A DNA stretch of 64,000 bases from Candidatus Wolfebacteria bacterium (GCA_016214005.1 JACRPK010000006.1:17719-81718), one strand, 5' to 3'. Shown: positions 1,157 to 13,788, counted from the stretch's first letter. Numbers and translations are program-made. Notes: a model not told the origin generated them from the letters alone.

Positions 1157-2434
1157 ATGATATTATTTTTAAATATGGCTTTTTATAATAAACAATTCCA
1201 ATCATTTCAATTGAAGAATGGTTTGAATATCATTACTCGCCAAGATAATAATTCGGATATAGCGACATTATCATTTCGAATTAAGGCAGGCTCGCGATAT
1301 GAAAAAGAAAATGAGCTTGGTTATGCCCATCTTTTAGAACATATGCTTTTGAAAGGAACAAAAAATTTTCCTTCTCCTTTTGAAATTGGATATGCCGTTG
1401 ACAGGGCGGGGGCTTATTTAAATGCTTCTACTGGGCAGGAGTTGTCCAGCGTTTATATCCAAGTTGCCAAAGAAAAATGGCAAGAAATGTTTAAATTGCT
1501 TTGTGATATAATTTCAAACCCGATTTTTCAAAAAGAAATTTTTGAAAACGAGAAAAAAGTTATTTTTCAGGAAATCAAAAAAACGAATGATAATCCTAAT
1601 AAATATCTGTGGATCAAAACAATTAAAAATATTTTTAAAAATCATCCGCTTTCTCATCATCCGCTTGGTGATGAAGAAATTATCAAAAAAGCGGTCGTTG
1701 AAAATTTAATAGATTATCGGGAAAGATTATTTATTCCAAATAATATGGTTTTGATTGCCAATGGCGCGATTGATAATGAAGAATTGATAAGAATAACCGA
1801 ACAAGAATTTTCTGTTCAAGATAATATTCAACAAAAAAGCGGCCAGTTCGATTATTCTGTTCCTCAAATAAATAAAGGGGAAGGTTTCGAATATTTTAAT
1901 AGCAGTCAATCTTATTTTAATTTTAATTTTGTTTCCGCCAGGGCTGATTTAAAAGATTATCTGGCGCTTCAATTAATCTCTATTTTTTTGGGTTCTCTTA
2001 AAACATCAATTTTATATCAAGAGTTAAGGCAAAAAATGGGGTTAGTTTATAATGTTAACGCTTATAATACCGGCTATCAGGATGCAAATTTATTTTATAT
2101 TGAAACTTCCAGCAATTATCCGGACAAAGTTATCCCCATAGTAATTGAAAAATTGTTAAATTTTGAAAAATATTTTTCAGAGAGCCTTCTAAAAGAATAT
2201 CAAGAACAATATGTAAATTCTTTAATCCGTAAATTAAGCGATCCATTCAATGAAATAAAGTTTTTGTCAGAATATTGGTTTCTCTATAATGGCATTAATC
2301 AGCTTTCGGATTTAATCAATATTATAAATTCAATAAAATATGAAGATTTATTTAGGATTAAAAATCAATATTTGAACGAAAATAATCTGTTTATTATGAA
2401 AATCGGCAAAGATAATCCGCAAATCCCCGCATAA
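1157..2434 (+). CDS. M16-family (insulinase/pitrilysin-like) zinc metallopeptidase, 425 aa
   Basis: HxxEH zinc motif (HLLEHMLLKGT) near the N-terminus. Length is typical of an M16 subunit. Its stop codon TAA (2432-2434) lies inside promoter cassette B. Confidence 0.7.
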   Translation: MILFLNMAFYNKQFQSFQLKNGLNIITRQDNNSDIATLSFRIKAGSRYEKENELGYAHLLEHMLLKGTKNFPSPFEIGYAVDRAGAYLNASTGQELSSVYIQVAKEKWQEMFKLLCDIISNPIFQKEIFENEKKVIFQEIKKTNDNPNKYLWIKTIKNIFKNHPLSHHPLGDEEIIKKAVVENLIDYRERLFIPNNMVLIANGAIDNEELIRITEQEFSVQDNIQQKSGQFDYSVPQINKGEGFEYFNSSQSYFNFNFVSARADLKDYLALQLISIFLGSLKTSILYQELRQKMGLVYNVNAYNTGYQDANLFYIETSSNYPDKVIPIVIEKLLNFEKYFSESLLKEYQEQYVNSLIRKLSDPFNEIKFLSEYWFLYNGINQLSDLINIINSIKYEDLFRIKNQYLNENNLFIMKIGKDNPQIPA

Positions 2435-2506
2435 AACCTCGCTAATTCCCCCCATTGACTTTTTTGTTTTCGTGAGTATAATACAGGGTAGAAACTTTGA
2501 AAATAA
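2423..2506 (+). promoter_or_regulatory. promoter cassette copy B (ATCCCCGCATAAAACCTCGCTAATTCCCCCC + TTGACT 2455-2460, 16 nt, TATAAT 2477-2482 + TAGAAACTTTGAAAATA)
   Basis: Repeat family member including the conserved 5' extension. Confidence 0.6.
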
Positions 2507-2612
2507 TCAGAGGAAAATCTCTGTTTTTATATATGGCGAAATATCTAAATAAAAACGTGGCTAATTTTTATTTGGTTTTGATTAACTTATAGCTGGGAAG
2601 GAGGATGCGAAT

Positions 2613-2714
2613 ATGGGCGGTAAAGGCGGTTCGGGCGGTCATGGCGGTGGCAATGCTGGTTCTGGCGGGCAAAACGGTCAGGGTGGCATTCGCGGCGGTG
2701 GCAGAGGCCGATAA
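2613..2714 (+). CDS. small Gly-rich peptide, 33 aa (MGGKGGSGGHGGGNAGSGGQNGQGGIRGGGRGR); candidate precursor peptide
   Basis: ATG 8 nt after GGAGG. Leader is conserved with copy A (GGAG..G.GAATATG). Followed by terminator hairpin ccccgatgtgaac...gtttacatcgggg. Confidence 0.35.
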   Translation: MGGKGGSGGHGGGNAGSGGQNGQGGIRGGGRGR

Positions 2715-2716
2715 TT

Positions 2717-2762
2717 CGACCCCGATGTGAACAAATCAATGTTTACATCGGGGATTTTTTTA
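2717..2762 (+). terminator. rho-independent terminator
   Basis: ccccgatgtgaacaaatcaatgtttacatcgggg followed by a T-run. Confidence 0.6.
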
Positions 2763-2779
2763 TTTATACTTTATAAAAT

Positions 2780-3424
2780 ATGATAAAAATTCCTTTTTAT
2801 GAAAATTCGAAAGACGATACTCATTGTTTTCAGGCTTGCTTGAAATCAATATTGAAATTTTATTTTCCTAAAAAAAATTATAGTTTTAAATATTTAGACA
2901 GAGCGACGGCTCACAAAAAAAATAAATGGACATGGAATAGCGCCGTATTTTTATTTTTAGAAAAATTTGGTTTTGAAATTATAAATATTGAAGATTTTGA
3001 TTATGCAAAATTCGCGCGGCTCGGAGAGCAATACCTTAAGAGAATATGGATAGATGAAGTATTTCAGACTCAAAAAAAATTTTCGGATTTAAAAAATGAA
3101 CAGAAATTGGCTAAAAAGTTAATTAAAAATAAAAAAATTAAATTATTAAAACGGCCGGCAACGATAAGTGATATTAAAAAATTATTTATAAAAAATTATA
3201 TTATTTTAGTGAACATTAATCCTTTTATTTTAAATAATAAAAAAGGTTATTCATCTCATATTGTGATTATAACCGATATGAATAAATCAAAAATAACTTT
3301 TCATGATTCCGGTTTGCCTCCGCAAAAAAATAGGAAAGCCCCCATTAAACTTTTCTTAAAAGCGATGGAATATCCTTATAAAGAAGACGCTAGTATTATT
3401 GCATTAAGATTGTTTTTTCTGTAA
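2780..3424 (+). CDS. putative papain-fold cysteine peptidase (C39-like), 214 aa
   Basis: N-terminal DDTHCFQACLKSILKFYF (Cys in a C39-like context). Later GYSSHIVIITDMN (His) and FHDSG (Asp). The order Cys...His...Asp fits C39-like leader peptidases. Confidence 0.4.
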   Translation: MIKIPFYENSKDDTHCFQACLKSILKFYFPKKNYSFKYLDRATAHKKNKWTWNSAVFLFLEKFGFEIINIEDFDYAKFARLGEQYLKRIWIDEVFQTQKKFSDLKNEQKLAKKLIKNKKIKLLKRPATISDIKKLFIKNYIILVNINPFILNNKKGYSSHIVIITDMNKSKITFHDSGLPPQKNRKAPIKLFLKAMEYPYKEDASIIALRLFFL

Positions 3425-3436
3425 GTTTGTGCTTTA

Positions 3437-3490
3437 TCTTTAAAATATTTTTTGAATTAAATATATTCAATTTGCCCGCCCTTTTTTAAT
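3437..3490 (+). repeat. ~50 bp repeat AAATATTTTTTGAATTAAATATATT..TTTGCCCGCCCTTTTTTAATGAT (second copy 17484..17535)
   Basis: Near-identical string at both loci. At the second locus it contains the stop codon of the kinase-like gene. Confidence 0.5.
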
Positions 3491-3513
3491 GATCAAATTT
3501 AATGATCAAAAAT

Positions 3514-3672
3514 TACAGCGTCAAGAAAATATGTTTTTCAGAATGTCTCGGAGGCGCAAAAAGCTTGGTCTTTTGCGAAGCAAAAGTTTTTGCGCCGAGA
3601 GCCAAGCTCTTGATTTTTCGCTGGAAAAAAATCAAAGAGCGGTTCTGAAAAACATATTTTCTTGACGCTGTA
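3514..3672. mobile_element. MITE-like structured repeat copy 1 (30-bp perfect terminal inverted repeats TACAGCGTCAAGAAAATATGTTTTTCAGAA)
   Basis: Three copies in the window (also 41576..41711 and 55953..56112), each with internal nested inverted repeats. ORFs called inside it are spurious. Confidence 0.6.
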
Positions 3673-3699
3673 ATCCCCAAAAAGTTATCCACAGCCTGT

Positions 3700-3785
3700 T
3701 CTCTCCCCATTGACTTTTTCATTTTCCCAAGTATAATGTAGGATAGAAACTTTGAAAAATACCAGTTCTAAGGTTAGAAACTGGT
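3700..3785 (+). promoter_or_regulatory. promoter cassette copy C (TTGACT 3710-3715, 17 nt, TATAAT 3733-3738) plus leader hairpin CCAGTTCTAAGGTTAGAAACTGG
   Basis: Repeat family member. The hairpin-type leader is shared with copies E and H. Confidence 0.6.
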
Positions 3786-3820
3786 TAAAAAAAGAAAGAA
3801 AAGAAAGAGGGGATAGGAAA

Positions 3821-4399
3821 ATGAAATTTTCAACGCGCCATATTATTTTACGACCAATGGAGGAGAAAGATTTATCGATTTTACATCAATGGCGTAACGA
3901 TGGCGATTTTATTCAATATTGTTCCGTTCGTCGTTATCCCGTCGAATACGAAGAATTTATTAATGAGTTGCAAAAGGATTTTAAAAATGATAGGCATCGT
4001 CAATTTATCATAGAATTACAAAAAGAGCGTAAGGTTATCGGTACAACTTATTCTTACAATTTTAACTCAATAGATGGTTATGCGTTTATAACTATTTATC
4101 TCGAGGAAAGGTACCGCTATCGTGGATATGGAGCAGAAGCAGTCGCGCTATTTTTAAGATTTCTTTTTGAATCATATCCCCTCTATAAAATTTATATGGA
4201 AGTGTATGACTATAATCAGCACGCGCTTTCAATTTTGCAAAATGCTAGTTTTGAAGAAGAGGGAAGATTTAAGGAACACCGTTTTTTTCGTGAAGAACGA
4301 TATGATTTAATCAGATTTGCATTTTTTCAGAAATCATTAACAAAAGTTTTTGAATTTTTAGAGAATATAAAATTTTATCGGAAAGGAGGTGATGTCTAA
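3821..4399 (+). CDS. GNAT-family N-acetyltransferase, 192 aa
   Basis: MKFSTRHIILRPMEEKDLSILHQWRND... with acetyl-CoA binding motif region YRGYGAEAV. RBS GGATAGGAAAATG. Confidence 0.7.
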   Translation: MKFSTRHIILRPMEEKDLSILHQWRNDGDFIQYCSVRRYPVEYEEFINELQKDFKNDRHRQFIIELQKERKVIGTTYSYNFNSIDGYAFITIYLEERYRYRGYGAEAVALFLRFLFESYPLYKIYMEVYDYNQHALSILQNASFEEEGRFKEHRFFREERYDLIRFAFFQKSLTKVFEFLENIKFYRKGGDV

Positions 4400-4599
4400 T
4401 GGGTTGGTTTAGAGATAAGGGAAAAGAAGGCATATTTCTTGAGGGGAAATCCAGTCGAGAGCATACCCATAGAGATGGTTCTCATGGGCGCGATGTAGAA
4501 GCATATCGCAACACATATAATGAGGGTGAACAAGTCCACAGCGAGAAAGCGGATGACTGGGGAAAGGATCACGAAAGTTCTGGCGATAGCGGAAAATAA
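4399..4599 (+). CDS. small hydrophilic peptide, 66 aa (…EKADDWGKDHESSGDSGK); candidate precursor peptide
   Basis: TAATG stop/start overlap with the GNAT gene. GGAGGTGA sits 9 nt upstream. Homologous to the N-terminal part of the 6193 protein (HTxRD…DWGxxKD). Confidence 0.4.
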   Translation: MGWFRDKGKEGIFLEGKSSREHTHRDGSHGRDVEAYRNTYNEGEQVHSEKADDWGKDHESSGDSGK

Positions 4600-4616
4600 A
4601 GTGGCACTTAACTAAA

Positions 4617-4662
4617 TAGGGCAGAGAGCAAATACTCTCCGCCCTATATTTTATTTTGAGGT
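4617..4662 (+). terminator. rho-independent terminator (tagggcagagag…ctctccgcccta + T-run)
   Basis: Inverted repeat followed by TATTTTATTTT. Confidence 0.55.
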
Positions 4663-4697
4663 TTCATTTTAAGTAAGTTTAAATTATAATTTTTAAT

Positions 4698-5975
4698 ATG
4701 CGCGATACAAAACAAATATTAAAAAAACCATTATTCTATCTTGTTAATTTACCTCAAAAAACGGATAAGATTTATTTCGATATTTTTTATCGCAGGGGAA
4801 ACATATTCGATCCTCCAATGGCAATGGGCATGGCGCATATGCTTGAACATTATATGGTTGGGCATCTGAAACAAAAATACATTCGCGATCATTTTATGGT
4901 TGGGGGAAGCATAAGTAATAGCTTCACAAATTTTTATCTTATTTCCAGCACACGTCAATTATTGTTAGATTTGCAGATTTTTTTAAGCGGAATTTTTAGA
5001 CCAGAATTTTCAGATAAAACAATTTTTGAATATGAGCTTAAAGCAGTTCGGAATGAAATTGCCGAAAAAAAACACGACATTGAATCGCAGATATTTGATG
5101 TTATTTCAAAAAAAATATTTTTAGGCGATTGTCCGTATCGCGCGGCAAATAATGAAAAAAATAAATATTTTGAAAAATTTACTCTTCATGACATACAGCA
5201 ATTTTACTTAAAAGATTTTTCAACCATAGAACCTTTGTTTGTTATAGGCGGTTATAATATAAACGATCGTTTGCTTAAAGAAGTTATTATTCTTATTCGC
5301 GAATTTTTACCGCAACGATTGCACTTATTTAATCATTTCAATTTTCCCAAATGCATTCCTCGCAGTTTTAACGTTGAAGCGATAAAAAACAAAAACATTA
5401 AAAGTGGGGCATATTCAGTGTTCACTTTTCCCGGTTTTTCAATGCAAGATCATGATTTTCGCTTGAGAATGGGGTTGCATGTGTTGTTAAAAATACTCAC
5501 AGGAAGTTCGCCATTCGGTTTGTCCATAGAAACCCGCAAATTAGGAATCTATAATATTTCTTATAAAAATATTATGAGACCGAGGATAGGGATTGTTTCA
5601 TTATTTTCTTTTACTGAAAATAATCAAATTTTCGCTTTGGCAAAACTAATTAAAGATCATATCGATTTGTTAAAAAAAGATCTTATAAACGAACAATATA
5701 TTTCAAAAATTGTTAACGACGCAAAAAATAAGCAAAAGGCGATTTGGGAAAATAACGAGAATAAATATAATTGGATCATAGATGATTTTAAATATTTAAA
5801 GTTTAATATTAACATCACGGCGGAAAAGAAAATATTGGATTCAATAACGCCTCAGTTTTTGCGGGAAATTGCAAATACAATTTTTAATTGGAGGAAATTC
5901 AATATGTTTGTTATATATAATGATATAAATAATCCACAGATAGGAAAAATAAAAAAAATTTTTCAAAATAATTAA
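4698..5975 (+). CDS. M16-family zinc metallopeptidase paralog, 425 aa
   Basis: HxxEH motif (MAHMLEHYMVGHL). Same length as 1157..2434. Confidence 0.65.
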   Translation: MRDTKQILKKPLFYLVNLPQKTDKIYFDIFYRRGNIFDPPMAMGMAHMLEHYMVGHLKQKYIRDHFMVGGSISNSFTNFYLISSTRQLLLDLQIFLSGIFRPEFSDKTIFEYELKAVRNEIAEKKHDIESQIFDVISKKIFLGDCPYRAANNEKNKYFEKFTLHDIQQFYLKDFSTIEPLFVIGGYNINDRLLKEVIILIREFLPQRLHLFNHFNFPKCIPRSFNVEAIKNKNIKSGAYSVFTFPGFSMQDHDFRLRMGLHVLLKILTGSSPFGLSIETRKLGIYNISYKNIMRPRIGIVSLFSFTENNQIFALAKLIKDHIDLLKKDLINEQYISKIVNDAKNKQKAIWENNENKYNWIIDDFKYLKFNINITAEKKILDSITPQFLREIANTIFNWRKFNMFVIYNDINNPQIGKIKKIFQNN

Positions 5976-5986
5976 CTTTGATCCGA

Positions 5987-6070
5987 ATCCCCGCATAAAA
6001 CCTCGCTAATTTCGCCATTGACTTTTTCATTTTCCCAAGTATAATATAGTGTAGAAACTTTGAAAAATAA
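5987..6070 (+). promoter_or_regulatory. promoter cassette copy D (TTGACT 6018-6023, 16 nt, TATAAT 6040-6045)
   Basis: Repeat family member. Followed by type-II leader ACGCATCCCTGCCTGCCGGCAGGCAGGTTTGTGAATGTGTTAATAAGAAAACCGG. Confidence 0.6.
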
Positions 6071-6077
6071 CGCATCC

Positions 6078-6097
6078 CTGCCTGCCGGCAGGCAGGT
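6078..6097. repeat. 20-bp perfect palindrome CCTGCCTGCCGGCAGGCAGG (copy 1 of 4)
   Basis: Identical palindrome at 11152..11171, 41542..41561 and 55922-ish (core CCTGCCGGCAGG). Confidence 0.6.
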
Positions 6098-6136
6098 TTG
6101 TGAATGTGTTAATAAGAAAACCGGACTTCATATTTT

Positions 6137-6154
6137 GCTATCACTAATGATAGC
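6137..6154. promoter_or_regulatory. 18-bp palindromic operator-like site GCTATCACTAATGATAGC (copy 1 of 5)
   Basis: Same palindrome (GCTATCAC yRr GTGATAGC) at 25155, 42593, 43143 and 43461. Confidence 0.45.
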
Positions 6155-6192
6155 GTGGTCAAAAATAAGTAAAGAAAGAGAGGAATTGAATT

Positions 6193-6576
6193 ATGGGTGG
6201 ATATTCTGAAAAAGATGCGGCAAAAGATACTAATTCTAGTATGAAAGAAACAAAAGATGCTTGGCATACTGCAAGAGATGATGCTGCTGAAGAAGGCGAT
6301 TGGGGTGTGCCAAAAGACAGACATGGTGAAGGATGTTTTATAGCGACTGCGGCTTATGGAAGCTATTTCGAGCCTCACGTAAAAATTCTCAGGGATTTTA
6401 GAGATATTTTTCTTGTGGAGAGTATTTTGGGAAGATTATTCATAAAAATTTATTATTGTATCAGTCCGTTTATTTCCGGTATTATTGAAAAAAGTGAAAT
6501 TTTAAAGAAAATTATGCGAATAATTCTTTCGCCGATAGCATTGTTGATTGAACATATATTTATAAAGCGCTTTTAA
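6193..6576 (+). CDS. 127-aa protein: N-terminal hydrophilic DW-motif peptide region fused to a C-terminal GCFIATAAYGS…LRDFRD…hydrophobic module
   Basis: N-terminal 47 aa are homologous to the 4399 peptide. C-terminus carries CFIATAAYGS followed by LRDFRD and a hydrophobic stretch. I recall this as a conserved C-terminal module of secreted/anchored proteins but cannot name the family with certainty. Confidence 0.5.
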   Translation: MGGYSEKDAAKDTNSSMKETKDAWHTARDDAAEEGDWGVPKDRHGEGCFIATAAYGSYFEPHVKILRDFRDIFLVESILGRLFIKIYYCISPFISGIIEKSEILKKIMRIILSPIALLIEHIFIKRF

Positions 6577-6610
6577 GCGCTTTTTATTTTGGCAAAATTA
6601 TTCATAATAT

Positions 6611-7164: not shown

Positions 7165-7275
7165 ATCCCCGCATAAAACCTCGCTAATTCCCCCCCCATT
7201 AACTTTTTTGTTTTCGTGAGTATAATACAGTGTAGAAACCTTGAAAAACACCAGTTCTAAGGTTAGAAACTGGTT
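7165..7275 (+). promoter_or_regulatory. promoter cassette copy E (TTAACT 7199-7204, 16 nt, TATAAT 7221-7226) plus hairpin leader
   Basis: Repeat family member. Confidence 0.6.
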
Positions 7276-7310
7276 AAAAAAAGAGAGAAAAGAAAGAGAG
7301 GATAAGGAAA

Positions 7311-8444
7311 ATGGTTGAATCGGCTATTGTTACATCACCGCTTAAAACAATGGTTCCAATCATTAAGGTGGTGGGCGATTTTTGCAATTTAAATTGCAAA
7401 TATTGTTTTTATAATGCCAAGGACCAGATTATCCGCCATGTGATGAGCAATGATTTGCTTGAAAAATTTTTTAGCGAGTATCTAGATCTTTTTTCTGGCA
7501 ATCTTTTTATTATTTGGCATGGAGGAGAGCCTCTTCTCGCAGGACTTCGATATTTCGAACATATTGTTGAACTTGAAAAGAAATATCTCAAAAAAGGCCA
7601 AACGATTAAAAACGCCATTTAAACAAATGCTACATTGGTAAACGATGAGTGGGCGCAATTTTTTAAAGCGCATAATTTTAAAGTTGGCGTAAGTTTAGAC
7701 GGCGGACAAGAAAGTCATAATCTATTTCGCAAAAATCATGGAGGGAAAGGTTCTTTTGATCATGCTATGCGAGGAATTAAAATACTCCGTCGTTATGGAA
7801 TAGAGCCTGGGATTATTCAAACTTTGACTCGCGCCAATATTTCGCGTGTTCAAGAAGATTTCAATTTTTTTGTGAATGTTCTTGGAATCCATGCGTGGGG
7901 AACAAATTTTTATCTTGATCTTGATAATATTAATCAGCTCATGCTGGATCAGAATCTTACCAATTGTCAGCTTGCGGATTTTTTGAGAAAACAAATTGAT
8001 CTTTGGCTTGTTCGAAATGATAGAACTTTACGCATTAGAGAAATAGAAAATTTTATTTCTGGCGTGTTTAATAAAAAAACGCCAAGTTGCGCTTTTAGCG
8101 GATCTTGCAGTAAATATTTTTGTCTTGAATACGATGGCAAAATATATCCATGTGATAGATCTTCTGGCAAGTCAGATCTGTTATTGGGAGATTTCTCCAG
8201 ACAATCGTTGCAAGATGTTTTTAATAGCGTGAGCAAATTAAATTATGATAAGCAGATTAATAATTTGCCATCTGAATGTTCAATTTGTGAATGGCTGAAG
8301 TTTTGCAATAATGGATGCGTTATGAACAGGGAAGGCGGGATTGGCGGTAAATATTATTATTGCGAGATGCGAAAAGAGATTTTTGCTTATCTTAAAGAGA
8401 AAGTTGGCGAATATAATCGATCACTTATAACACAAACCGCCTGA
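7311..8444 (+). CDS. radical SAM / SPASM-domain peptide-modifying enzyme (anSME-like), interrupted by an in-frame TAA at 7620-7622
   Basis: CxxxCxxC (GDFCNLNCKYCFY) at residues 25-32, followed by GGEPLL. C-terminal Cys cluster CSKYFCLEYDGKIYPCD…CSICEWLKFCNNGCV matches SPASM. Both halves are in the same frame. The TAA falls where the conserved Q of the (I/V)QTNGTLL motif is expected (here AI*TNATLVNDEW). Confidence 0.75.
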
Positions 8445-8465
8445 AAAGGCAGAAAGGAGATAGCA

Positions 8466-8633
8466 ATGGATGGTAATATTGCAATAGAGGGAGCTTTCTT
8501 AAGAGCGGAAGAACGGTCAAATAACGATCTGTTAATTGAGACAGATTCAAAACGGCAGGAAGCTGTTTTGGATTTTTGCAAATGGCCAGATTGGAACAAT
8601 GCTCCGGATTTCACAGAGCTGGAGACGCTCTAA
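8466..8633 (+). CDS. small peptide, 55 aa (MDGNIAIEGAFLRAEERSNNDLLIETDSKRQEAVLDFCKWPDWNNAPDFTELETL); candidate rSAM substrate
   Basis: Starts 22 nt after the rSAM stop, with RBS AAAGGAGA. Contains a CKWPDW segment (Lys-Trp adjacent). Followed by a terminator. Confidence 0.4.
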   Translation: MDGNIAIEGAFLRAEERSNNDLLIETDSKRQEAVLDFCKWPDWNNAPDFTELETL

Positions 8634-8639
8634 TATATA

Positions 8640-8692
8640 AATATTCCGACAAAGGCTTATCAAAATTTTTGATAAGCCTTTTTTATTTTAAT
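8640..8692. terminator. bidirectional rho-independent terminator (ggcttatcaaaatttttgataagcc)
   Basis: Perfect inverted repeat flanked by T-runs on both strands, between convergent genes. Confidence 0.55.
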
Positions 8693-9585
8693 ATTCCTTT
8701 TAATTCAGAAATTGAAAAATATACTTTTTCTATATATTCGTTATCAAGCGGTTTATTTTTCTTAATGTAAATATTTATTAATTTTATTAATTCTTCGGTT
8801 TTAACATAGTTTTTTGGTATTTTGGCGTTTAACGTAATATTCTTGCTATTTAAAAATTTTCTGCCCAAGACGCCATTGGGGAAAAGAGAACTTATCGCCG
8901 ATTCTTTAATAAGATTTATGGTATCAAAATCATTCAGATATTTTTTATACAGCAAGGGAAGAAAATATTGTTTTTCAAAACATAGATGTATTGTTTCGTG
9001 CCAAATAATACCCATGGCATGATTTGCGTCATTTAACGGATAGCGAGAAATTTCAAGGCTGATACTTTTATTATCAATACTTGCTCCGCCGCCCGTTTGA
9101 ACGGGTGAAGAAAATAATAAATTAATGTTAATTTTAAATTCAGAAGGAGAAGTATTAAAAATAATGTTCAATATATCAACTATAGATTTTACCAAATGCG
9201 GTTCATTTATTTTGTCGCTTAATTTTTTTTGCCATTGAAGTAGGAGAGGCTCTTCTTTGTTCCAAAGCAAATTAAATTTTTTTTCCAACAAAGAAAAAAT
9301 ATTTTTGAGATTAATAAAATCTTCTTGCGATAATTTTTGTTCTAAAATAATCCAAGGATTTTTTTCGATAAAAAATTGGCGCCCTAAGTATGATTCTCCA
9401 AATGGATATCGTAAGTGGATTTCTTTAAATTCTTTCAGGGAGTTTTCTTCTTCTGGCGAAAATTGCCCGAGTTCTTCTCTCCATAAAATATTGTAATTTT
9501 TTCGGTTGCTAAAATGCCATTCGGAAAGGTTTTGGATAAAAAAATAAAAATTTGCCCATTTTGAAATTATAAATTCAAATTTCAT
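8683..9585 (-). CDS. hypothetical protein with HExxH motif (putative zinc-dependent peptidase-like), 300 aa
   Basis: MGIIWHETIHLCFE contains HETIH. No other recognisable domain. Confidence 0.4.
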   Translation of the reverse strand: MKFEFIISKWANFYFFIQNLSEWHFSNRKNYNILWREELGQFSPEEENSLKEFKEIHLRYPFGESYLGRQFFIEKNPWIILEQKLSQEDFINLKNIFSLLEKKFNLLWNKEEPLLLQWQKKLSDKINEPHLVKSIVDILNIIFNTSPSEFKININLLFSSPVQTGGGASIDNKSISLEISRYPLNDANHAMGIIWHETIHLCFEKQYFLPLLYKKYLNDFDTINLIKESAISSLFPNGVLGRKFLNSKNITLNAKIPKNYVKTEELIKLINIYIKKNKPLDNEYIEKVYFSISELKGILK

Positions 9586-9672: not shown

Positions 9673-9760
9673 GAATCCCCCGCATAAAACCTCGCTAATT
9701 CCCCCCATTAACTTTTTTATTTTCGTGAGTATAATCTAGGTAGAAACTTTGAAAAATAAC
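9673..9760 (+). promoter_or_regulatory. promoter cassette copy F (TTAACT 9708-9713, 16 nt, TATAAT 9730-9735)
   Basis: Repeat family member. The leader is a diverged type-II version. Confidence 0.6.
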
Positions 9761-9864: not shown

Positions 9865-10443
9865 ATGATCCAGACAGTCGAAAGGAGTTCTTGTTCGAGA
9901 GGGTTTGAGCACTTCCATGGCGGAGTTGGAGTTCAGGGGATTCTCAGCGATCTGGTAATTCCCGCAATTCCAGGCGAGTACTACGCCTACTCCTCCGAGT
10001 TCACGAAGGAACGACCGCTGTACGCGCTCATGAAGTGCAAGGCGAACAAGGATCGTCCAATTACCGCCGCGGAAGACCTTGGTCAAGAGGCAAACCTGCT
10101 TTTCCTGTTTGGCAACCAGAACCAGGTTCAGGCCTGCGCGATCAGGACGGCGTACATTTCCGGTCTGCTCGGTGACTCCGTCAATGGTGAGTCATTCGGC
10201 GAGACGTGGATTGCTCCCGCCCGGATTACCGCCGAAGACTTCTACGAGCTTCGTTCGAGGAAAGATGTGACGAAGCTAGTGGAAATTTGCCAGGTGGCGT
10301 GCTCGGAGCGCAGGGCATCCATCGCGCTGGAACCAGGGGTGGTCATTGCTATGATGACTGACTGCGGAAAGTACGGTTTGTTCTTCGTGAGGCGGATCAC
10401 TCCAGCACTGATCCAAATTGATGCTTGCCACATCTTGCTTTAG
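9865..10443 (+). CDS. hypothetical protein, 192 aa, in a compositionally foreign high-GC segment
   Basis: The segment ~9800-10560 is ~55% GC against ~30% in the flanks. It has RBS AAGGAGA and a downstream terminator hairpin ccgccaaggggtatcccttggcgg. Confidence 0.5.
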   Translation: MIQTVERSSCSRGFEHFHGGVGVQGILSDLVIPAIPGEYYAYSSEFTKERPLYALMKCKANKDRPITAAEDLGQEANLLFLFGNQNQVQACAIRTAYISGLLGDSVNGESFGETWIAPARITAEDFYELRSRKDVTKLVEICQVACSERRASIALEPGVVIAMMTDCGKYGLFFVRRITPALIQIDACHILL

Positions 10444-10573: not shown

Positions 10574-11044
10574 CTATAAAATTTTTCGCCACACTTGCCC
10601 GATATCATCATCCGGTGGTGTTATCTCTCCAGCTCTCTCAAAACCCAATTTGCCATGAAAGCGCCACGACTCACTGTGAGAATTAGGACTATATAAAAGG
10701 ATTTCAGTAAAACCAAGTCTGCGCGCTTCCTCAATTAGTTTTAATTTTAGTGTTTTTCCGATACCTCTTCTTTTATATTTTACCGCAATGACATAAAATT
10801 CAACAGGATTATTAGTTAGCGCATACGGCTTTAAGTAGTTAGCCAATTTTTTAAAACCAACAATTCCTAAAATTTCACTGTTTTCCGTTGCTACAAAAAA
10901 ACCGGAATCTTTCTTCGGAGTTTTTTTAACATATAATTGTAATTCACTTAAAAGCTCCTTAAGAAATTCTGGGTCTGTCCAATACAAAGCAAAAATTTCT
11001 TCCACCGCTTTTTGGTCGCTTTCCTGAAATTCTCGGATGATCAT
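10574..11044 (-). CDS. GNAT-family N-acetyltransferase, 156 aa
   Basis: RRGIGKTL acetyl-CoA binding motif and characteristic GNAT fold order. Confidence 0.7.
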   Translation of the reverse strand: MIIREFQESDQKAVEEIFALYWTDPEFLKELLSELQLYVKKTPKKDSGFFVATENSEILGIVGFKKLANYLKPYALTNNPVEFYVIAVKYKRRGIGKTLKLKLIEEARRLGFTEILLYSPNSHSESWRFHGKLGFERAGEITPPDDDIGQVWRKIL

Positions 11045-11087: not shown

Positions 11088-11171
11088 GTCCATTGACTTT
11101 TTCATTTTCCCGAGTATAATATAGGGTAGAAACTTTGAAAAATAACGCATCCCTGCCTGCCGGCAGGCAGG
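11088..11171 (+). promoter_or_regulatory. promoter cassette copy G (TTGACT 11093-11098, 16 nt, TATAAT 11115-11120) with type-II leader containing the 20-bp palindrome
   Basis: Repeat family member. Confidence 0.6.
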
Positions 11172-11272
11172 TTTGTGAATGTGTTAATAAGAAAACCGGT
11201 ACTACTATTGATAGTAGTGCCAAAGATATTTCAGACAAAGAAAGAAAAGAAAAAGAAAGAGAGGATGGGAAA

Positions 11273-12253
11273 ATGAAAGAAGCAATTCTTATTTTAACTA
11301 ATTCCGAAGATGGTAAACATACGGATGTTGTGCTTGAGAAACTTCAACAGGCTGATCAGAATGTTTTTCGTTTTGATTCAGATCGTTTTGCAAATGGTGA
11401 GATTATAATTGATTTTGAGAATAACCATCGGAGATGCGAATTTGCGATGTATTCTCATGATCAAGTGATAAATTCAAGAAATATTAAAAGTGTTTGGTAT
11501 CGTAGGCCTAATCATTTTAACTTGCAAATTCAAGATCTCGTTCAGCGTAATTATGCCGAACAAGAGATTAAAAATTTGCTAGATGGATTATGGACGATGG
11601 TGCCGGATATTTTTTGGTTAAGCAATCCGAAAAGCCTTGAACAAGCGCGGAAAAAACTTTTTCAATTAAAACTTGCTCGCGAGCTTGGATTCTTAATACC
11701 AGAAACAATAGTTACCAATGACCCAAATCGTGTTCATGAATTTTTTAAGACCTACAATGGTAAGATAGTTTTTAAAGCTTTTTATCATGAATTTCTAAAT
11801 TATGGAGATCGCGCATTTAATATTCCGACTACGCTTATAACAGAAAAACACCTAGAAAAACTTGAGCTTGTCAAGAAAATGCCATGTCTATTTCAAGAAT
11901 TTATCGATAAAAAATACGAGCTAAGAATAACGGTTGTAGGACAAAAAATTTTTCCAGTCAAAATTTATTCTCAAGAAAATTCTCAAACAACTGTTGATTG
12001 GAGAAATCCGGAGTTTATTAATAAACTCCGTTATGAAGTTGTTAGTATCCCAGAAGCGCTTGTTAAAACCTGTTTAACTATGTTGAATGAGCTTGAGCTT
12101 TCGTTTGGAGCTTTTGATTTTGTAGTTGATAAAATAGGGGAAATCTTTTTTCTTGAAATTAACCCTAATGGACAATGGTATTGGATGGAAAGTCAAACAA
12201 ATGTGCCAATTTCTGATGCCATTGTTGATATTCTAAGTTTAGAAAGGAGGTGA
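11273..12253 (+). CDS. ATP-grasp ligase (RimK/MdnC-like; candidate peptide macrocyclase), 326 aa
   Basis: N-terminal MKEAILILTNSEDGKHTDVV and central/C-terminal ATP-grasp regions (ELRITVVGQKIF…FDFVVDKIGEIFFLEINPNGQW). The called ORF begins inside the leader, so the start is set at 11273. Confidence 0.6.
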   Translation: MKEAILILTNSEDGKHTDVVLEKLQQADQNVFRFDSDRFANGEIIIDFENNHRRCEFAMYSHDQVINSRNIKSVWYRRPNHFNLQIQDLVQRNYAEQEIKNLLDGLWTMVPDIFWLSNPKSLEQARKKLFQLKLARELGFLIPETIVTNDPNRVHEFFKTYNGKIVFKAFYHEFLNYGDRAFNIPTTLITEKHLEKLELVKKMPCLFQEFIDKKYELRITVVGQKIFPVKIYSQENSQTTVDWRNPEFINKLRYEVVSIPEALVKTCLTMLNELELSFGAFDFVVDKIGEIFFLEINPNGQWYWMESQTNVPISDAIVDILSLERR

Positions 12254-12259
12254 TAGATT

Positions 12260-12370
12260 ATGAGTCCTGAGATTTTTGCGGCAATTTGCGCCGTGGAATC
12301 ATCAGAACAACTCTCTGAAGTTACGGCGAGTTGGACTGGCCAGGGGTCTTTCAAACATCAAGACGACTAG
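12260..12370 (+). CDS. small peptide, 36 aa (MSPEIFAAICAVESSEQLSEVTASWTGQGSFKHQDD); candidate ATP-grasp substrate
   Basis: AAAGGAGGTGA overlaps the ATP-grasp stop and the ATG is 7 nt downstream. Ser/Thr and C-terminal Asp residues present. Terminator follows. Confidence 0.4.
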   Translation: MSPEIFAAICAVESSEQLSEVTASWTGQGSFKHQDD

Positions 12371-12392: not shown

Positions 12393-12432
12393 ATAGGGAG
12401 TGGCGATAAGCTGCTCCCTATATTTATTTTTA
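12393..12432 (+). terminator. rho-independent terminator (atagggagtggcgataagctgctccctat + T-run)
   Basis: Inverted repeat followed by ATTTATTTTT. Confidence 0.5.
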
Positions 12433-13179: not shown

Positions 13180-13716
13180 ATGAATAAAAATTTAGTAAAA
13201 ATTATAAATGAAATGGCCGCCATTGATCAAAAGATGAGAAGAAATGCGATGAAAACTGGAATTTGGGATAAGATGGTTGATAGAAAAAATATATTAAAAA
13301 TAAAAAAAATTATTAAAAAATTTGGTTGGCCGACGATTGGTCTTGTTGGTAAAAAAGCTAGTTGGAATGCGTGGTTAATTATTCAACACGCCGATCATGA
13401 TATTCGGTTTCAAAAAACTATTTTAAGTCTGCTCGAAAAAATTTATAATAAAAATTCATTAGAAATAGATAAAAATAATATAGCGTTTTTAAAAGATAGA
13501 ATTTTAATAAATGAAGGGAAGCATCAAGTATTTGGGACACAATTTTATACAAATAAAAAAGGAATTTTTGGACCGAGGTCGATAAAAGATATTAAAAATC
13601 TTGATAAAAAAAGAAAAGAATATAATCTGCCGCCATTTAGTGAATATAAAAAATTAATAAATAATTACAAAGTTGTTCCGATTAAAAAAAATAATAAAAA
13701 TAATCACCGCCATTGA
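13180..13716 (+). CDS. hypothetical protein, 178 aa, very AT-rich
   Basis: ORF only. Its 3' end abuts promoter cassette H. Confidence 0.35.
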   Translation: MNKNLVKIINEMAAIDQKMRRNAMKTGIWDKMVDRKNILKIKKIIKKFGWPTIGLVGKKASWNAWLIIQHADHDIRFQKTILSLLEKIYNKNSLEIDKNNIAFLKDRILINEGKHQVFGTQFYTNKKGIFGPRSIKDIKNLDKKRKEYNLPPFSEYKKLINNYKVVPIKKNNKNNHRH

Positions 13717-13788
13717 CTTTTTTATTTTCCCGAGTATAATATAAAATAGAAACTTTGAAAAATACCAGTTCTAAGGTTAGAAACTGGT
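13705..13788 (+). promoter_or_regulatory. promoter cassette copy H (TTGACT 13713-13718, 16 nt, TATAAT 13735-13740) plus hairpin leader
   Basis: Repeat family member. Confidence 0.6.

Follow-up and report, generated by a model that had tools for sequence, protein, structure and literature searches.

Graspetides, those RiPPs (ribosomally synthesised, post-translationally modified peptides) that carry omega-ester and omega-amide links, are already on record from candidate-phyla bacteria (Makarova 2022, PMC8939145; Carter 2026, PMC13097080). The first of these surveys gives a bioinformatic description of two branches of ATP-grasp ligases of the candidate phyla radiation (CPR), with 'cluster 23' proteins, SPASM radical-SAM enzymes and Tiki/TraB-family proteins in Branch 2, and with precursors not confidently identified for most Branch 2 loci. 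The second recognises 43 graspetide groups, of which group 42 comprises 22 clusters from candidate phyla and is typified by a minimal ligase and DUF6624 arrangement, the latter protein occurring in 82 % of these clusters. The locus considered herein lies in a 64,000 nt stretch of Candidatus Wolfebacteria bacterium DNA (GCA_016214005.1 JACRPK010000006.1:17719-81718; hereafter the window, with positions counted from its first letter), and consists of an ATP-grasp ligase gene and, directly behind it, a reading frame for a 36 aa peptide. Judged from sequence, and with a probability of roughly 85 %, it would be a compact graspetide gene pair of a CPR bacterium, for which a mechanism is proposed below. 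A first-pass annotation of this DNA had suggested such a graspetide-like pair, naming as contrary outcomes a ligase of RimK/glutathione synthetase type and the absence of the peptide from orthologous loci; the suggestion is borne out by the family matches of the ligase, the conservation of the precursor and its division into leader and core.

With regard to the ligase, full-length NCBIfam matches are obtained to TIGR04187 (5.8e-74), MvdC (9.3e-71) and MvdD (8.2e-65), with a further match to the grasp-with-SPASM model (1.9e-34). The MvdD pre-ATP-grasp domain PF21068 is likewise detected (2e-17, 63.8 bits against a gathering cut-off (GA) of 27), and the best matches in the Protein Data Bank (PDB), again over the full length, are MdnB (5ig8, 4e-51) and MdnC (5ig9, 1e-45), followed by AMdnB, CdnC and PsnB, with E-values spanning 4e-51 to 4e-36 for MdnB, MdnC, AMdnB and CdnC. 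Housekeeping models, by comparison, return 3e-11 for RimK and about 1e-4 for GshB (glutathione synthase), and no family cut-off is reached, be it that of RimK (43 versus 143 bits), GshB (21 versus 272), LysX (22 versus 276) or MptN. The comparison with graspetide families that had been recommended at the outset thus favours the original suggestion, and the housekeeping assignment does not hold. A database search yields 586 homologues at E ≤ 1e-10, the nearest 100 or so being 45–69 % identical and almost all derived from Patescibacteria metagenome bins. When 21 sequences of the clade, the window ligase amongst them, are aligned, K168, Q208, R218, D242-W-R244 (DxR), D282 and E295-x-N297 are invariant, and roles in ATP/Mg2+ and acceptor binding can be assigned to these residues from general knowledge of ATP-grasp enzymes. 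The assignment also leans on the alignment presented by Carter (2026, Fig. S31; PMC13097080), and by it the window protein appears to retain both its ATP/Mg2+-binding and its acceptor-binding residues. It is the only ATP-grasp ligase of this type inside the window.

The ligase frame runs from an ATG at 11273 through 326 codons to a TGA at 12251–12253. GenBank lists the same protein as HZC33_01175, begun at a TTG at 11135 and therefore 372 aa long; the additional 46 residues are present in no homologue, and the corresponding DNA (11135–11272) overlaps hairpins of the predicted 5′ untranslated region (UTR). All homologues begin at MK..ILVLTNS, which corresponds to ATG 11273, and the TTG lies a mere 15 nt downstream of the −10 box, so that the true start of the ligase is ATG 11273.

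The peptide frame opens with an ATG at 12260, 6 nt past the ligase stop (its first base being the seventh), and closes with a TAG at 12368–12370, ahead of a hairpin at 12393–12421 and its T-run. The anatomy described in the first-pass annotation, namely a ligase ending in TGA with GGAGG (12246–12250) in its last codons, a peptide starting 7 nt later and a terminator at its end, is thus confirmed base by base. In other frames, two further open reading frames (ORFs; 53 and 59 aa) share DNA with the peptide gene; the existence of the ORF is in itself no proof, and the case for the peptide rests on conservation. The peptide is passed over in this genome both by gene callers and by the GenBank annotation, which proceeds from HZC33_01175 (the ligase) to HZC33_01180 (the next gene).

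To assess this conservation, 160 loci were fetched using the ligase alignment and more by exact look-up, for a total of 169, among which 19 distinct loci possess a ligase at least 44 % identical to that of the window together with downstream DNA. Seventeen of the 19 encode a peptide homologue of 35–48 aa immediately behind the ligase, its start lying −11 to +52 nt from the ligase stop; in L003 the homologue is a diverged one of 53 aa, and L090 alone has no peptide homologue after its ligase, so that the absence named as a contrary outcome is not what is seen. A purine-rich Shine–Dalgarno (SD) sequence precedes the peptide start in all 16 loci compared, mostly as GGAGG and in a few cases as GGGGG, GGCGG or GGAAGG, and as it overlaps the ligase stop codon in most loci, the ligase C-terminus reads ..RR or ..GR. 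Behind the peptide stop, 15 of these 16 loci show a GC-rich hairpin and T-run; the exception is L165, with none evident within 90 nt. A regular expression for the leader motif, run over both strands of the 169 loci, matches exclusively at peptide sites. Beyond these loci, a profile of 16 peptides retrieves 84 cluster representatives of 34–71 aa from 5.8 billion proteins, and 57, all except three of the same kind, are retrieved when 1.84 billion representatives are scanned exhaustively with HMMER. The family has about 100 distinct members.

Across 85 of these peptides the median length is 38 aa, the leader Cys is present in 83 and an exact Asp-Asp end in 68. The family is characterised by a leader motif, PE[IVT]FAAxCAVE, and a core motif, W(x)TG...DD, mostly at the very end of the peptide. 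Alignment of the 16 loci reveals that F6, T26, G27 and D35 are invariant and that conservation reaches 90 % or more at E4, C10, W25 and D36; T26 is also conserved to at least 90 % in a 53-member alignment. The intervening linker differs amongst members in both sequence and length, with insertions and deletions occurring as whole codons. The conserved Thr, Gly and Val residues are each encoded by four synonymous codons, pairwise differences between peptide genes at codon positions 1, 2 and 3 are 0.39, 0.35 and 0.66, respectively, and the median dN/dS is 0.24 (25 unsaturated pairs). The recurrence of peptide, SD/stop junction and terminator, together with a codon pattern that fits selection on protein, goes beyond chance and argues for a real gene; as read from these alignments, the 36 aa ORF is a conserved gene with the two-part architecture of a RiPP precursor.

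The cores fall into several types. The most common, SW[TS]TG[SQ]GTGSDPDD, is found in 43 of the 85 peptides, whilst the Lys-type (type-A) core, SWTG[QK]G(S/A)xKH[RQK]DD, occurs in 16, including that of the window, and minor sets carry WCTG or DRARD. The Lys is retained in all 16 type-A cores, and Ser30 is replaced by Ala in P0160/L086. The C-terminal Thr/Ser donors and acidic acceptors noted at the outset are thus found, with Lys in addition, in a conserved core containing T26, D35 and D36. Distant Patescibacteria ligases (33–39 % identity) are accompanied by short, unannotated-looking candidate precursors of their own with related leaders (L005 4991-5128, L092 1260-1379, L048 4997-5116). That of L005 is, for example, MEKEQIIEVFALLVAKE..., with the leader IEVFALLVAKE and an esterase-fold gene nearby; that of L092, VEVFGFSFA...RWTTGGGGDADE, lies upstream of its ligase with DUF6624 in the vicinity.

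The features of the locus are collected in Table 1. A strong promoter and structured 5′ UTR before the ligase and a terminator after the peptide define ligase and substrate as a two-gene unit. The 5′ UTR folds at −37.4 kcal/mol (z = −4.5 versus shuffles) and is probably untranslated, given the position of the promoter and the start sites of homologues; the terminator hairpin folds at −22.6 kcal/mol. The placement of the SD in the last codons of the ligase suggests that translation of the peptide is coupled to that of the ligase. The promoter belongs to a near-identical cassette, CCATTGACTTTTTCATTTTCCCGAGTATAAT..GTAGAAACTTTGAAAAA, with six copies in 10 kb: that of the ligase (11090-11144) and five others of 43–55 nt at 3708-3750, 6016-6058, 7196-7250, 9705-9759 and 13710-13764, where 0 would be expected by chance. 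The purine-rich ribosome-binding stretch (AAAGAAAG...AGAGAGGA) stands 3′ of the cassette in three of the six copies, recurring ahead of two genes other than the ligase, at 7276 and 13791. Several unrelated genes of the region, the ligase included, thus employ one promoter design.

Table 1. Features of the ligase–peptide locus and its accessory genes in the window
Feature	Position	Strand	Basis and remarks
Sigma-70-like promoter, TTGACT-16 nt-TATAAT	11093..11120	+	11 of 12 consensus positions matched; member of repeated promoter/5′ UTR cassette
Predicted 5′ UTR, with two hairpins and purine-rich ribosome-binding stretch AGAGAGGA ahead of ligase ATG	11127..11272	+	
Graspetide-type ATP-grasp ligase (macrocyclase), 326 aa	11273..12253	+	NCBIfam, Pfam and PDB matches; homologues
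Shine–Dalgarno GGAGG for peptide	12246..12250	+	In the final ligase codons GAA AGG AGG TGA; sequence reading
Precursor peptide, 36 aa, MSPEIFAAICAVESSEQLSEVTASWTGQGSFKHQDD	12260..12370	+	Homologous ORFs after ligase; coding selection
Peptide parts: leader, approx. residues 1–13 (PEIFAAICAVE); linker, 14–23; core, 24–36 (SWTGQGSFKHQDD)			
Intrinsic terminator, 12 bp GC-rich hairpin (12393-12421) and T-run ATTTATTTTT	12393..12431	+	Terminator scan
Erythromycin-esterase/ChaN/Tiki-superfamily hydrolase, 235 aa	12458..13165	+	Pfam, predicted structure; tied to Lys-type cores
DUF6624 protein, 178 aa	13180..13716	+	Pfam PF20329, 1.9e-22; recurrent graspetide-associated accessory

The sequence of events that these elements suggest would begin with a single transcript, running from the promoter to the terminator and encoding the ligase and then its substrate, the peptide being translated from the SD built into the final codons of the ligase. 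The ligase would then bind the alanine-rich N-terminal leader helix (PEIFAAICAVE) and, with ATP, activate the side-chain carboxylates of D35 and D36 as acyl-phosphates. Both steps are proposed by analogy with MdnC and PsnB, for which they are established. Since Thr26 is the sole universally conserved nucleophile, its capture of an activated Asp, generating a macrolactone of approximately 10 residues, is the likely primary ring. A second ring would form via Lys32 (lactam) or, alternatively, Ser30 (second lactone); as Lys32 is constant within the core type of the window and Ser30 can be Ala, the Lys32-to-Asp lactam is favoured. The product would thus be a bicyclic peptide, 36 Da lighter, which the downstream esterase-fold hydrolase may process by removal of the leader or opening of a ring, with DUF6624 as a putative second accessory protein.

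As to these accessory proteins, the ChaN/Tiki-superfamily Pfam model is matched by all six hydrolase members examined and the erythromycin esterase model by five of the six. An AlphaFold model built with 25 homologues as input has a pLDDT of 90.5, and the protein has the fold, N-terminal GxxH, conserved Glu and C-terminal GxxH that define the superfamily, with GExHG, E51, R85, E89-H90, R125-D126, G149 and H152 being invariant. Sequence-profile searches of the PDB with the hydrolase and with DUF6624 return chance matches only, such that the hydrolase assignment derives from predicted structure; a single-sequence AF2 model of DUF6624 (pLDDT 45.7) is unusable. The nearest known proteins to the hydrolase are the erythromycin esterases EreB/EreC and Bcr135/136, and both fold and conserved residues are as in the macrolactone-opening Ere enzymes, in a superfamily that also includes proteases (Tiki, RRSP). 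In each of the seven Lys-type loci that extend far enough (window, L001, L086, L166, L167, L168, L169), the hydrolase gene is the next one after the peptide, and it occurs in none of 12 loci with other core types, a pattern to be taken as such and not as a statistic, as the loci are mutually related. DUF6624 is encoded downstream of the peptide in 10 of the 12 non-type-A loci and, amongst Lys-type loci, in the window only. Both families also adjoin more distant Patescibacteria ligases, and DUF6624 is frequent in graspetide groups 18, 20, 23 and 42 (Carter 2026, PMC13097080). The most likely role for the hydrolase would be in processing of the peptide, by leader removal or ring opening. A bolder possibility, judged rather unlikely, is that it is a dedicated graspetide processor co-evolving with the Lys-type core, either as a lactone/isopeptide opener (for self-protection or as an on/off switch) or as a new class of leader peptidase, and that together with DUF6624 and precursors of 35–40 aa it makes up a minimal CPR-specific pathway with accessory chemistry unseen in characterised graspetides.

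Further genes surrounding the pair were considered as components and set aside. The divergent GNAT gene (10574..11044), a candidate MdnD-like N-acetyltransferase, has no homologue in any of the 169 related loci; the APH-like kinase (16552..) and a second radical-SAM gene (15200..) are not conserved beside the ligase; and the pairing of a radical-SAM/SPASM gene with a 300 aa unknown (7311..9585) recurs only in L087 and L169 and is regarded as an occasional neighbour. The radical-SAM/SPASM gene of this pairing (7311-8444) is anaerobic-sulfatase-maturase-like and contains an in-frame TAA (7620-7622) at a position occupied by Gln in the L169 and L087 homologues (..NAI*TNATLVN versus ..NLVQTNATLVN), reflecting either an error of assembly or a nonsense mutation of CAA to TAA; it and the 300 aa gene (8683-9585) also lie near the peptide in those two loci. 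Between 9800 and 10500 there is an island of 56 % GC in a genome of approximately 30 % GC, with a 192 aa ORF (9865-10443) that has no Pfam match; L002, a Patescibacteria metagenome-assembled genome, has a 53 % identical homologue of this ORF upstream of its ligase. Upstream, at 1157-6600, the region encodes further proteins of peptide-processing type: an M16 peptidase (1157-2434), a weak C39-like peptidase (2780-3424), a GNAT (3752-4399), a small protein bearing the motif CFIATAAYGS (6193-6576) and a second protein of HxxEH type, for which Pfam gives no match (4698-5975). In one Patescibacteria locus (L161, 2299-2526) a DUF397 gene stands just upstream of the ligase; DUF397 is also recorded beside actinobacterial graspetide groups 11 and 13 (Carter 2026, PMC13097080).

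Several observations weigh against the reading of the locus as a graspetide pair. The ligase scores below the curated NCBIfam equivalog/subfamily cut-offs (TIGR04187 249 versus 350 bits) and is far from the equivalog cut-offs for MvdC (238 versus 425) and MvdD (219 versus 475), indicating that it represents a divergent clade outside every curated family. The putative crosslink pattern is read from conservation alone, the loci share neither a conserved exporter nor a conserved protease for which a cleavage motif is recognisable, and the terminator stands between the peptide and the accessory genes, leaving their co-expression presumptive. In addition, two lineages keep the peptide and hydrolase gene with no ligase nearby, such that the peptide may persist without an adjacent ligase, or not strictly need one. 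In L166/L170 (10001-10803) a ligase is missing within 10 kb, an rve transposase is found at a distance of 2 kb and the hydrolase gene is cut short; L169 (3407-3690) shares the gene order of the window between the radical-SAM gene and the peptide, except that it lacks the GC-rich ORF, the GNAT and the ligase, and keeps ...GAAAGGAGGTGA ahead of the peptide start. Both ligase-less states are read here as deletions. They could, however, also be taken to mean that the ligase does not act on the peptide, which would instead be a small conserved protein, for example a regulator, a signal or an inhibitor, working chiefly with the hydrolase or another factor, and that adjacency to the ligase is a matter of operon convenience, for which the perfect tracking of core type by the hydrolase might also speak. 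Set against this, 18 loci have the peptide directly behind the ligase and keep the SD-in-stop junction, loci with non-Lys cores lack the hydrolase and still have the ligase, L170 looks degraded (with its truncated hydrolase and nearby transposase), and the division of the peptide into leader and core is as in RiPP precursors; a function outside graspetide synthesis is hence considered very unlikely.

It is similarly hard to credit, if for other reasons, that a peptide-modification island is decaying in this genome and that the pair, no longer active, is what is left of it. The interrupted radical-SAM gene next to it, the ligase-less relatives and the mosaic GC composition of the region would all suit such decay, but both ligase and peptide frames are intact, every clade-invariant ligase residue and family-invariant peptide residue is present, and promoter, SD and terminator are likewise undamaged. 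An entirely different activity for the ligase would be that of a RimK-like tailing enzyme, adding amino acids to the C-terminal Asp-Asp of the peptide with no cyclisation. RimK-type enzymes lengthen acidic C-termini, the exact DD ending of 68 of the 85 family peptides would provide a suitable substrate, and a weak RimK match (3e-11) does exist. This match amounts, however, to 43 bits against 249 for the graspetide maturase model, the ligase possesses a pre-ATP-grasp domain specific to MvdD, and the solved structures nearest to it are those of macrocyclases. Tailing would moreover leave the conservation of Thr26 (invariant in 16 loci and at least 90 % in 53 peptides), Trp25 and the type-specific Lys or Ser/Thr unexplained, and acidic ends also occur in other graspetide precursors (e.g. 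...THFDD and ...SDPD), rendering this the least likely of the explanations weighed here. The graspetide pair therefore remains the preferred reading.

The finding leaves knowledge of how graspetides are made unchanged. The pair is self-contained, easily expressed and only about 1.1 kb in size, making it a handy first entry to the graspetide chemistry of CPR bacteria, from which no product has so far been characterised. Furthermore, one core type pairs strictly with a protein of erythromycin-esterase fold and the others with DUF6624, which provides two concrete, testable hypotheses concerning accessory enzymes.

When set beside known systems, the window pair resembles microviridin biosynthesis (MdnA with MdnB/MdnC; group 1) in ligase fold and domain layout, which are alike over the full length of 5ig8/5ig9, and in the common logic of a leader helix followed, at the C-terminus, by a core that offers Thr/Ser/Lys as donors and acidic residues as acceptors. 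It differs in having one ligase where microviridin has two (MdnB and MdnC), and the window peptide contains neither the microviridin core TxKYPSDWEE (in general form TxKxPSDx(D/E)(D/E)) nor the PFFARFL leader. Nor is there an ABC exporter in the window locus or an analogue of MdnD, the GNAT not being conserved in related loci, and the precursor, at only 36 aa, lies downstream of the ligase. Having only one ligase, falling short of the cut-offs and differing in leader as well as core, the window pair is not a microviridin system.

The actinobacterial SAV_5884-type pairs, whose precursors end in ...GTTTSTAGSKTHFDD, supply the best NCBIfam model for the window ligase (TIGR04187), and the GS.(K)THFDD end of these precursors is near to the GSFKHQDD of the window family. 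The SAV_5884-type precursors are, however, approximately 60 aa in length with unrelated leaders, as opposed to the 36 aa of the window peptide. The special closeness that the ...KH.DD end had suggested is not supported, as the window ligase is 30–36 % identical to those of Streptomyces and Nonomuraea, the same as to cyanobacterial ligases. Prunipeptin, the product of group 11, has two rings, one closed by an ester and the other by an isopeptide bond, and one ligase makes both.

Group 42 is of interest for its representative core, FTTHGTPNDPDSGGTD, which (Carter 2026, PMC13097080) resembles the [WF]TTG...DPDD of the window's peptide family, and for the co-occurrence of DUF6624 in both. Its representative precursor has a PLILDRL leader, unlike that of the window family, and neither it nor anything similar was retrieved by the 5.8-billion profile search or the HMMER scan; the survey mentions no esterase-fold partner for group 42. 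As far as the available portions of both surveys extend (PMC8939145, PMC13097080), the precursor family described here appears to be unreported, and none of the motifs GSDPDD, CAVES and KHRDD is present in the accessible part of the PMC8939145 supplementary text.

A relationship also exists with Branch 2 of Makarova (2022, PMC8939145). The Branch 1 precursors presented in that survey are 55–60 aa in length with leaders and cores other than those of the window family, whilst Branch 2 shares with the window both the host radiation and a matching accessory set, particularly if 'cluster 23' corresponds, as we tentatively infer, to DUF6624. The table of that survey lists a 329 aa Branch 2 ligase from Daviesbacteria GW2011_GWB1_41_5 with no precursor. 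The same Daviesbacteria genome has an annotated 38 aa protein, UU67_C0056G0003 (P0160), which is a member of the family described here and identical to the peptide of L086, and the L086 ligase is itself 329 aa in length and 52 % identical to that of the window. Peptide identity, ligase length and gene neighbours place the window ligase, as far as sequence comparison can, in the Branch 2 clade alongside that of Daviesbacteria, so that the family supplies the missing substrate for a candidate-phyla ATP-grasp clade listed without precursors in a dedicated survey.

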